DNA of 26,066 nucleotides, taken from NCBI RefSeq assembly GCF_003334255.1, contig NZ_QOWU01000064.1, one strand, 5' to 3'. This DNA is from Escherichia coli. GTDB taxonomy: Bacteria; Pseudomonadota; Gammaproteobacteria; Enterobacterales; Enterobacteriaceae. Each line of letters starts with the position of its first letter. The first letter of the stretch is position 1. Positions 15,212 through 15,313 of this stretch are shown in pieces. Below the pieces are notes generated by a model, which saw nothing but the letters and a program-made list of their open reading frames with translations, searched no databases and was not told the DNA's origin. Both the position numbers and the translations under genes were made by a program.

Positions 15212-15224
15212 AACCCCAAACCTA

Positions 15225-15237
15225 TCGAAAATATCGA
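15225..15237. promoter_or_regulatory. LysR-type T-N11-A dyad (TCGAAAATATCGA) in the yfiE-eamB divergent intergenic region
   Basis: Palindromic TCG-N7-CGA within T-N11-A spacing, 14 bp upstream of the yfiE start and ~77 bp upstream of eamB. Confidence 0.4.
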
Positions 15238-15313
15238 ATCTAGAATATAAAAACATTCATTTTTTTAAATGTTCCGTGTCGGGTACTGTCTACCAAAACA
15301 GAGGAGATAACAA

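Follow-up and report, generated by a model that had tools for sequence, protein, structure and literature searches.

The spacer of 102 bp that separates the divergently transcribed genes yfiE and eamB of Escherichia coli is probably a compact and canonical control region of the LysR type. It contains a pair of conserved boxes at fixed positions, through which the regulator YfiE is likely, as we judge from sequence comparisons, to act as an activator of the exporter gene. A regulatory link between YfiE and eamB is already known in the form of binding and a proposal of control published in 2021. What the current analysis adds is a base-pair map of two position-locked boxes, a -10 element and a likely transcription start, as well as a connection between the box and the recognition helix of the regulator. 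The YfiE-eamB operator is a sound but ordinary finding and the map is a small addition to it. EamB is used in the engineering of cysteine-producing strains, and the predicted map should make simple experiments possible, such as the construction of point mutants, a reporter fusion and a screen for the inducer.

The divergent genes and their surroundings

In the window (the whole stretch of 26,066 nucleotides of E. coli DNA that was analysed), yfiE occupies positions 14330-15211 on the minus strand and encodes a LysR-type regulator of 293 aa with the N-terminus MDLRRF. The plus-strand gene eamB (yfiK), at 15314-15901, encodes from a GTG start a LysE/RhtB-family cysteine/O-acetylserine exporter of 195 aa, and the 102 nt between the two genes (15212-15313) are 67% A+T. 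The window is E. coli K-12 DNA; its segment 14200-16000 is 100% identical to strain MG1655, where yfiE is b2577 (NC_000913.3, 2714439-2715320, minus) and eamB is b2578 (2715423-2716010, plus), and it was found in all 5,426 complete E. coli genomes. A sequence-only reading of the window had described a LysR regulator divergent from an eamB exporter, and the gene calls, strands, protein domains and spacer limits all agree with that description.

YfiE carries both an HTH_1 domain (PF00126, residues 3-62, E = 7e-17) and a LysR_substrate domain (PF03466, residues 87-289, E = 2e-45), and it lies divergent from its presumed target across a short spacer; both features are expected of a LysR-type regulator with its operator. 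EamB matches the LysE domain PF01810 (E = 8e-15), as expected of a LysE/RhtB-superfamily exporter, and scores 411 bits against the cysteine/O-acetylserine transporter model NF007653, for which the cut-off is 193. None of the NCBIfam models compared with YfiE reaches its cut-off; the ArgP/LysG model NF002964 gives 61.3 bits against a cut-off of 197, which places YfiE outside that family. The PDB holds no structure of YfiE itself, the nearest entries being the generic LysR-type regulators CbbR, CatM, BenM and OxyR. With neither an NCBIfam equivalog nor a solved structure for YfiE, these sources offer no clue to an inducer.

The MDLRRF start of YfiE is invariant among 16 aligned orthologues and shows that 15211 is the true start of yfiE; a longer frame that opens at an ATG at 15256 (308 aa) and would cross the first of the boxes described below is ruled out by this invariant N-terminus. 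Some database entries of yfiE have extended N-termini, with lengths of 306-341 aa. The start codon of eamB (15314-15316) is GTG in 40, ATG in 4 and TTG in 3 of 47 orthologous loci. Natural yfiE mutants exist in two E. coli strains from pig carcasses, SEV1 (L068, NZ_CP151548.1) and SEV4, in which an ISApl1 element of 1070 bp, flanked by a target duplication of 2 bp, interrupts yfiE behind codon 7-8, at the window equivalent of 15188/15189; the insertion separates the gene from its promoter, while both eamB and the operator are preserved. At the other end of yfiE, the convergent srmB-yfiE spacer (~14160-14290) contains REP-like palindromes, for example gcctgatgcgctacgcttatcaggcctac and gtaggccggataaggcg...cgcatccggca, and the median number of BLAST places per genome rises to as many as 35, as expected from REP repeats.

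Boxes and promoter elements in the spacer

At the promoters that they control, LysR-type regulators have a regulatory site of the form T-N11-A at around -65 and, at around -35, an activation site. The T-N11-A motif TCGAAAATATCGA lies exactly at 15225-15237. By sequence statistics only, the motif is weak and not significant. The spacer contains 8 T-N11-A matches against 9.7 expected from shuffled sequences, 17% of shuffles yield a T-N11-A in which four or more end pairs are symmetric, and TCGA-N5-TCGA is encountered 3 times across the window. Both the sequence and the position given in the sequence-only reading are correct, and its description of the motif as a dyad is apt only in part. The symmetry is limited to the TCGA cores, which are self-complementary (5 of 6 pairs symmetric, 4 of them contiguous from the ends), and the E. 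coli element can equally be read as a direct repeat, with two copies of TATCGAA 9 nt apart.

Comparison with orthologous loci gives the motif a different standing. The footprint set consisted of 47 non-identical proteobacterial yfiE-eamB spacers from at least 12 genera, with information content calculated from 27 representatives and with four-fold degenerate yfiE sites of these genomes as the reference. Every one of the 47 spacers preserves T15225 and A15237. These two bases belong to a conserved block, box 1 (15224-15238, ATCGAAAATATCGAA), which has the form ATC-N9-GAA, encloses the T-N11-A and is invariant in the 27 representatives at ATC 15224-15226, T15234 and A15237. A second block, box 2 (15250-15272, AAAACATTCATTTTTTTAAATGT), has inverted-repeat arms AACATT (15252-15257) and AATGTT (15268-15273). 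For the 27 representatives, mean information content is 1.16 bits in box 1, 1.31 bits in box 2, 1.32 bits in a -10 element of the TAnnnT type (15284-15289) and 1.35 bits in the Shine-Dalgarno block (15301-15307, with 1.1-1.8 bits per position), and it is ~0.5 bits in the stretches between these blocks. The four-fold degenerate sites of yfiE have a mean of 0.27 bits and a maximum of 0.70, and 0 of them are invariant. On this evidence, the copy of T-N11-A in box 1 is under strong selection, far beyond chance.

The blocks are locked in their distances to each other and to eamB. From the first base of box 1 to A15253 in box 2 there are 29 nt in 47 of 47 spacers, from A15253 to the -10 element there are 31 nt, again in 47 of 47, and from box 1 to the eamB start codon there are 90 nt in 45 of 47. 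Between box 1 and the eamB start the alignment contains no gaps, and every insertion or deletion in the spacer falls on the yfiE side, where the stretch between the yfiE ATG and box 1 (15212-15223 in E. coli, the ribosome-binding region of yfiE on the minus strand) varies from 12 to 23 nt. In the group of Kluyvera, Serratia and Rahnella, the right half-site of box 1 lies 1 nt closer, giving ATC-N8-GAA.

Weight matrices built for the two boxes without any Escherichia sequence single out the same positions in E. coli. At 15223-15239 the box 1 matrix reaches 24.5 out of a maximum of 26.2, and its runner-up in the window scores 13.6; the box 2 matrix scores 38.7 of a possible 39.5, with a runner-up of 2.4. 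The third-best match to the box 1 matrix, TATCGAAAGCATCAAGC (14536-14552, minus strand, 12.6 bits), lies inside yfiE over the codons of a conserved IESIK motif, and the protein-coding constraint there probably accounts for it.

The eamB promoter is predicted to rely on the -10 element TACTGT (15284-15289, plus strand), in which T15284, A15285 and T15289 are invariant among the 27 representatives. At 16-18 nt upstream of this -10 there is no usable -35, just a run of T residues. The likely transcription start, A15296, is 18 nt before the GTG, places the -10 element at -12 to -7, and is followed by the Shine-Dalgarno sequence AGGAGA (15302-15307). This start was transferred from Klebsiella by way of the gap-free spacer alignment: Kim et al. 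2012 (PMC3415461, supplementary file 2) mapped the start of K. pneumoniae KPN_00233, with 3 reads, to 18 nt before the start codon, and the upstream sequence that they print for this gene is identical to our comparison locus L019. The available supplements of Kim et al. 2012 and of the Cappable-seq paper contain no E. coli transcription start for eamB or yfiE. A consensus promoter and terminator scan of 15000-15500 returned none, a result that is compatible with an activator-dependent promoter and uninformative by itself.

Numbered from the transferred start, the centre of box 1 (15231) is at -65 and that of box 2 (15262.5) is at -33.5, so that the T-N11-A stands where a LysR operator is expected and a second conserved inverted repeat, held at rigid spacing, stands near -35. 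The two centres are 31.5 bp apart, or three helical turns. We propose box 1 as a candidate high-affinity regulatory binding site (RBS) for YfiE and box 2, at the usual place of the -35, as a candidate activation binding site (ABS). Boxes at -65 and -33.5 on a promoter that lacks a -35 would reproduce the textbook layout of regulatory and activation sites among LysR-type activators. On the minus strand, a candidate yfiE promoter has the -10 TATTCT (15242-15247) and the -35 TTTAAA (15269-15264) with a 16-nt spacer; it agrees with 8 of 12 consensus positions, which is below the threshold of the scanner, and its conservation is moderate. Transcription of yfiE from this promoter would start near 15235, inside box 1, a placement that would suit autorepression.

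Distribution of the cassette and of its boxes

Orthologues of YfiE with 64-98% identity exist across the Enterobacterales and in Aeromonas, and homologues of 35-46% identity are found in Firmicutes and other phyla. A homologue of eamB lies divergent from the yfiE homologue in ~50 of 62 loci, across a spacer of 101-113 bp, and the genera that carry this cassette include Escherichia, Citrobacter, Klebsiella, Kluyvera, Cedecea, Yersinia, Serratia, Rahnella, Pectobacterium, Providencia and Aeromonas. The divergent pair of homologues also occurs in several Firmicutes and an Arcobacter. The flanking genes srmB and grcA are restricted to the group of Escherichia, Citrobacter and Cedecea; in K. pneumoniae, the yfiE-eamB pair lies between dnaQ and yafV, and srmB directly adjoins grcA. 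The preservation of the spacer despite such differences in flanking genes implies that yfiE and eamB travel as a unit.

Distant relatives of the regulator can be used to ask what the box accompanies. Eleven homologues of YfiE with 26-44% identity were recovered through a shared recognition-helix peptide, TVTF(H/Q)IQQ, and 10 of the 11 have divergent genes other than eamB, among them genes for an EamA-like transporter (a DMT-type protein, in Enterococcus), a YczE-like membrane protein, an MFS transporter, an acetyltransferase of the GNAT type and NAD(P)H or NAD(P)H/FMN oxidoreductases. Boxes of the strict form ATCGA-N5-T(C/T)GAA are present at 6 of the 11 paralogues (8 boxes in total, where chance would give ~0.1 per 300 nt), and in 5 of these 6 the box is located 14-35 nt before the start codon of the regulator gene itself. 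The paralogues of loci L053 and L055 each have another box exactly 31 nt beyond the first, and in Paenibacillus the perfect palindromes TTCGATTTAATCGAA and TTCAATAATATTGAA each have a partner box 31 nt away. Since the same box lies beside paralogues with different neighbours, it follows the regulator and not eamB.

Small exporter or detoxification genes are the recurrent partners of the helix-sharing paralogues in comparison loci L053, L055, L056, L057, L058, L060 and L061 (upstream of the yfiE homologue, ~2501). In Paenibacillus terrae (L050), the spacer before the yfiE homologue (396 bp) contains the whole two-box control module in tandem duplicate. Behind each copy of the module comes a segment of ~45 nt, similar in both cases and with the ending ...TAAGGAATAAA, which may be a leader or what is left of a duplicated gene start.

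It is conceivable, though we put this forward tentatively and would sooner doubt it than rely on it, that the two-box operator (ATCGA-N5-T(C/T)GAA with a partner 31 bp off) and YfiE represent an ancient LysR-type subfamily that extends from Firmicutes to Enterobacteria and moves in cassettes of a sensor plus an exporter or detoxifier, with YfiE of E. coli as a dedicated, substrate-sensing activator of eamB. If this were true, the physiological substrate of EamB might be neither cysteine nor O-acetylserine, and the defined operator could serve as a reporter for finding the true one.

Binding of YfiE, proposed activation of eamB and related systems

Binding of YfiE to this region has been described by Gao et al. 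2021 (PMC8464067), who list four ChIP-exo sites for YfiE-8myc in glucose M9; the strongest, with a signal/noise of 12.5, is presented as "one divergent binding peak between yfiE and eamB", and control of the exporter by YfiE is already proposed there. The peak carries no flag for RNA polymerase binding in this medium (PMC8464067), which fits a poised, uninduced YfiE activator. The interval is given as 2713323-2713356 in NC_000913.2, the coordinate version stated in the methods section (PMC8464067). The window is offset from NC_000913.3 by 2700109. For the step from version 2 to version 3 we took the offset to be +1978, presumably accurate to within ~2 nt. So converted, the reported interval becomes 15192-15225, with the same uncertainty of ~2 nt; its centre is on the yfiE start codon, and of box 1 it reaches no more than the first 2 nt. 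The published peak places YfiE on the spacer without resolving the operator. All four listed sites are intergenic only under the version 2 reading, consistent with the +1978 offset. A reading of the coordinates as NC_000913.3, which would place this site inside srmB and the other three inside genes, was rejected, the methods naming NC_000913.2.

The three remaining sites listed for YfiE (dhaK-dhaR, tnaB-mdtL and upstream of yffQ) contain no box: the matrices score 6-7 bits there as compared with 24-39 at the eamB spacer, and a regulon motif common to all four sites was rejected on these scores. The dhaK-dhaR interval (version 2, 1250168-1250203; NC_000913.3 1250945-1250980, or L065 1446-1481) turns up again, with nearly identical limits, under YdhB, YhjB and YeaM, the YeaM entry in version 3 coordinates, and probably represents a hot spot of non-specific ChIP signal. 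The yfiE-eamB peak is absent from the lists of other regulators in the available part of Gao et al. 2021. Both version 2 and version 3 coordinates are in use in the supplementary lists of that study. One further listed site, assigned to yfiD (grcA) for YneJ (version 2, 2714363-2714386), converts to 16232-16255 and so comes to lie within the coding region of grcA, in its 5' part, and not in the promoter.

A CRISPRi preprint of 2025 lists over 300 genes as changed in the case of yfiE, discusses dhaKL and gldA, and argues for direct control of dhaKL, a claim that is weakened by the shared and box-less nature of the dhaK-dhaR site; neither its text nor its available supplement mentions eamB. The other reported targets of YfiE, such as dhaKL, are probably non-specific ChIP signals, and eamB is probably the sole genuine target. 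Our search of the literature found no change in eamB expression connected with yfiE and no named inducer. The sequence-only reading had called control of eamB by YfiE not firmly established, and this was a fair caveat for a case in which binding is what has been published. Its proposal that YfiE acts on the divergent eamB through the T-N11-A site has gained support from the conserved cassette, from the fixed distance between the box and the eamB elements, from the company that the box keeps with helix-sharing paralogues and from the published ChIP-exo peak (PMC8464067).

Most likely, to judge from the arrangement of the spacer, the exporter gene is turned on by a YfiE switch. YfiE, presumably a tetramer like other LysR-type regulators, would sit on box 1 at -65 and additionally touch the weaker box 2 at -33.5, which might substitute for a -35 element at a promoter that, with TACTGT alone and a start at ~A15296, would be very weak if unaided. 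A co-inducer, for which a compound exported by EamB or a metabolite that builds up with it is the most plausible candidate, might reposition YfiE on box 2, whereby RNA polymerase would be recruited and eamB expressed. The same complex would be expected to repress yfiE, the likely start and leader of which are overlapped by box 1. The bases touched by YfiE, activation in preference to repression, the autorepression of yfiE and the identity of the inducer are parts of this scheme that we infer.

The elements of the scheme can be put together differently. YfiE might bind both boxes and mainly repress, through autoregulation and perhaps a shut-off of eamB, so that eamB would not be an activated target at all. 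LysR-type regulators as a rule repress their own genes, box 1 overlaps with what are likely to be the yfiE start and leader, and the published interval has the start codon of yfiE at its centre and no RNA polymerase flag. We nevertheless consider such a role unlikely, in view of boxes that are distance-locked to the -10 and start codon of eamB and float relative to yfiE, of a box 2 at the place typical of the activators of the family, and of an eamB promoter that, with a weak -10 and no -35, would leave little to repress; autorepression and activation can, moreover, coexist. It is a good deal less probable that the conserved boxes are read by some other protein (an AT-preferring global regulator, or a regulator of sulfur or amino-acid metabolism) and that occupancy by YfiE is incidental. 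Both boxes are AT-rich, the listed ChIP-exo interval leaves box 1 uncovered beyond its first 2 nt, and the dhaK-dhaR site shared with YdhB, YhjB and YeaM reveals non-specific peaks in this data set. Another reader of the boxes would, however, have to account for a box that occurs beside helix-sharing paralogues, in Firmicutes and at unrelated targets, with the same 31-nt two-box spacing, for a cassette that retains its boxes in differing chromosomal contexts, and for a yfiE-eamB peak that is the strongest of the four listed and is seen in none of the available lists of other regulators.

Hardly any probability attaches to the reading of the T-N11-A as a functionless chance match in AT-rich intergenic DNA. 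The unremarkable statistics of the motif in E. coli (its frequency relative to shuffles, the commonness of a four-pair dyad and the recurrence of TCGA-N5-TCGA in the window) are what would be expected of such a match, but the site is invariant across genera in which four-fold degenerate sites are saturated and its matrix score is unique in the window. The comparative data, as we read them, refute chance, and an artefact of alignment is unlikely because the spacer is gap-free from box 1 to the eamB start.

LysG-lysE and ArgP-argO are systems in which LysR-type regulators control LysE-family exporters. The E. coli pair resembles LysG-lysE of Corynebacterium glutamicum in having a LysR-type regulator divergent from a small exporter of the LysE superfamily across a short spacer, and by analogy the logic of that system, in which the exported compound induces its own exporter, would be expected for YfiE and eamB as well. 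YfiE differs from LysG in standing outside the ArgP/LysG family, and the substrates here are cysteine and O-acetylserine as opposed to basic amino acids. With ArgP (IciA) and argO of E. coli the pair would have in common the control of a LysE-family exporter gene by a LysR-type regulator through sites that extend over the -35 region; argP, however, is not adjacent to argO and has many other targets, whereas yfiE and eamB form a tight and apparently dedicated two-gene cassette. PunR (YdhB)-punC and YnfL-ynfM are parallel cases, in Gao et al. 2021 (PMC8464067), of an uncharacterised LysR-type regulator with a ChIP-exo peak between itself and a divergent transporter gene; activation of punC by PunR has been demonstrated (PMC9068703), in contrast to the published result for YfiE, which is one of binding only. 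The half-site flanks of the E. coli element are direct repeats and its candidate box 2 is one bp shorter, TTC-N8-(G/A)AA, and in these two respects it is unlike the classical LysR operators of CbnR, BenM, OccR and others. With those same operators it shares a T-N11-A at -65, a degenerate inverted repeat at -33.5 and a divergent regulator gene.
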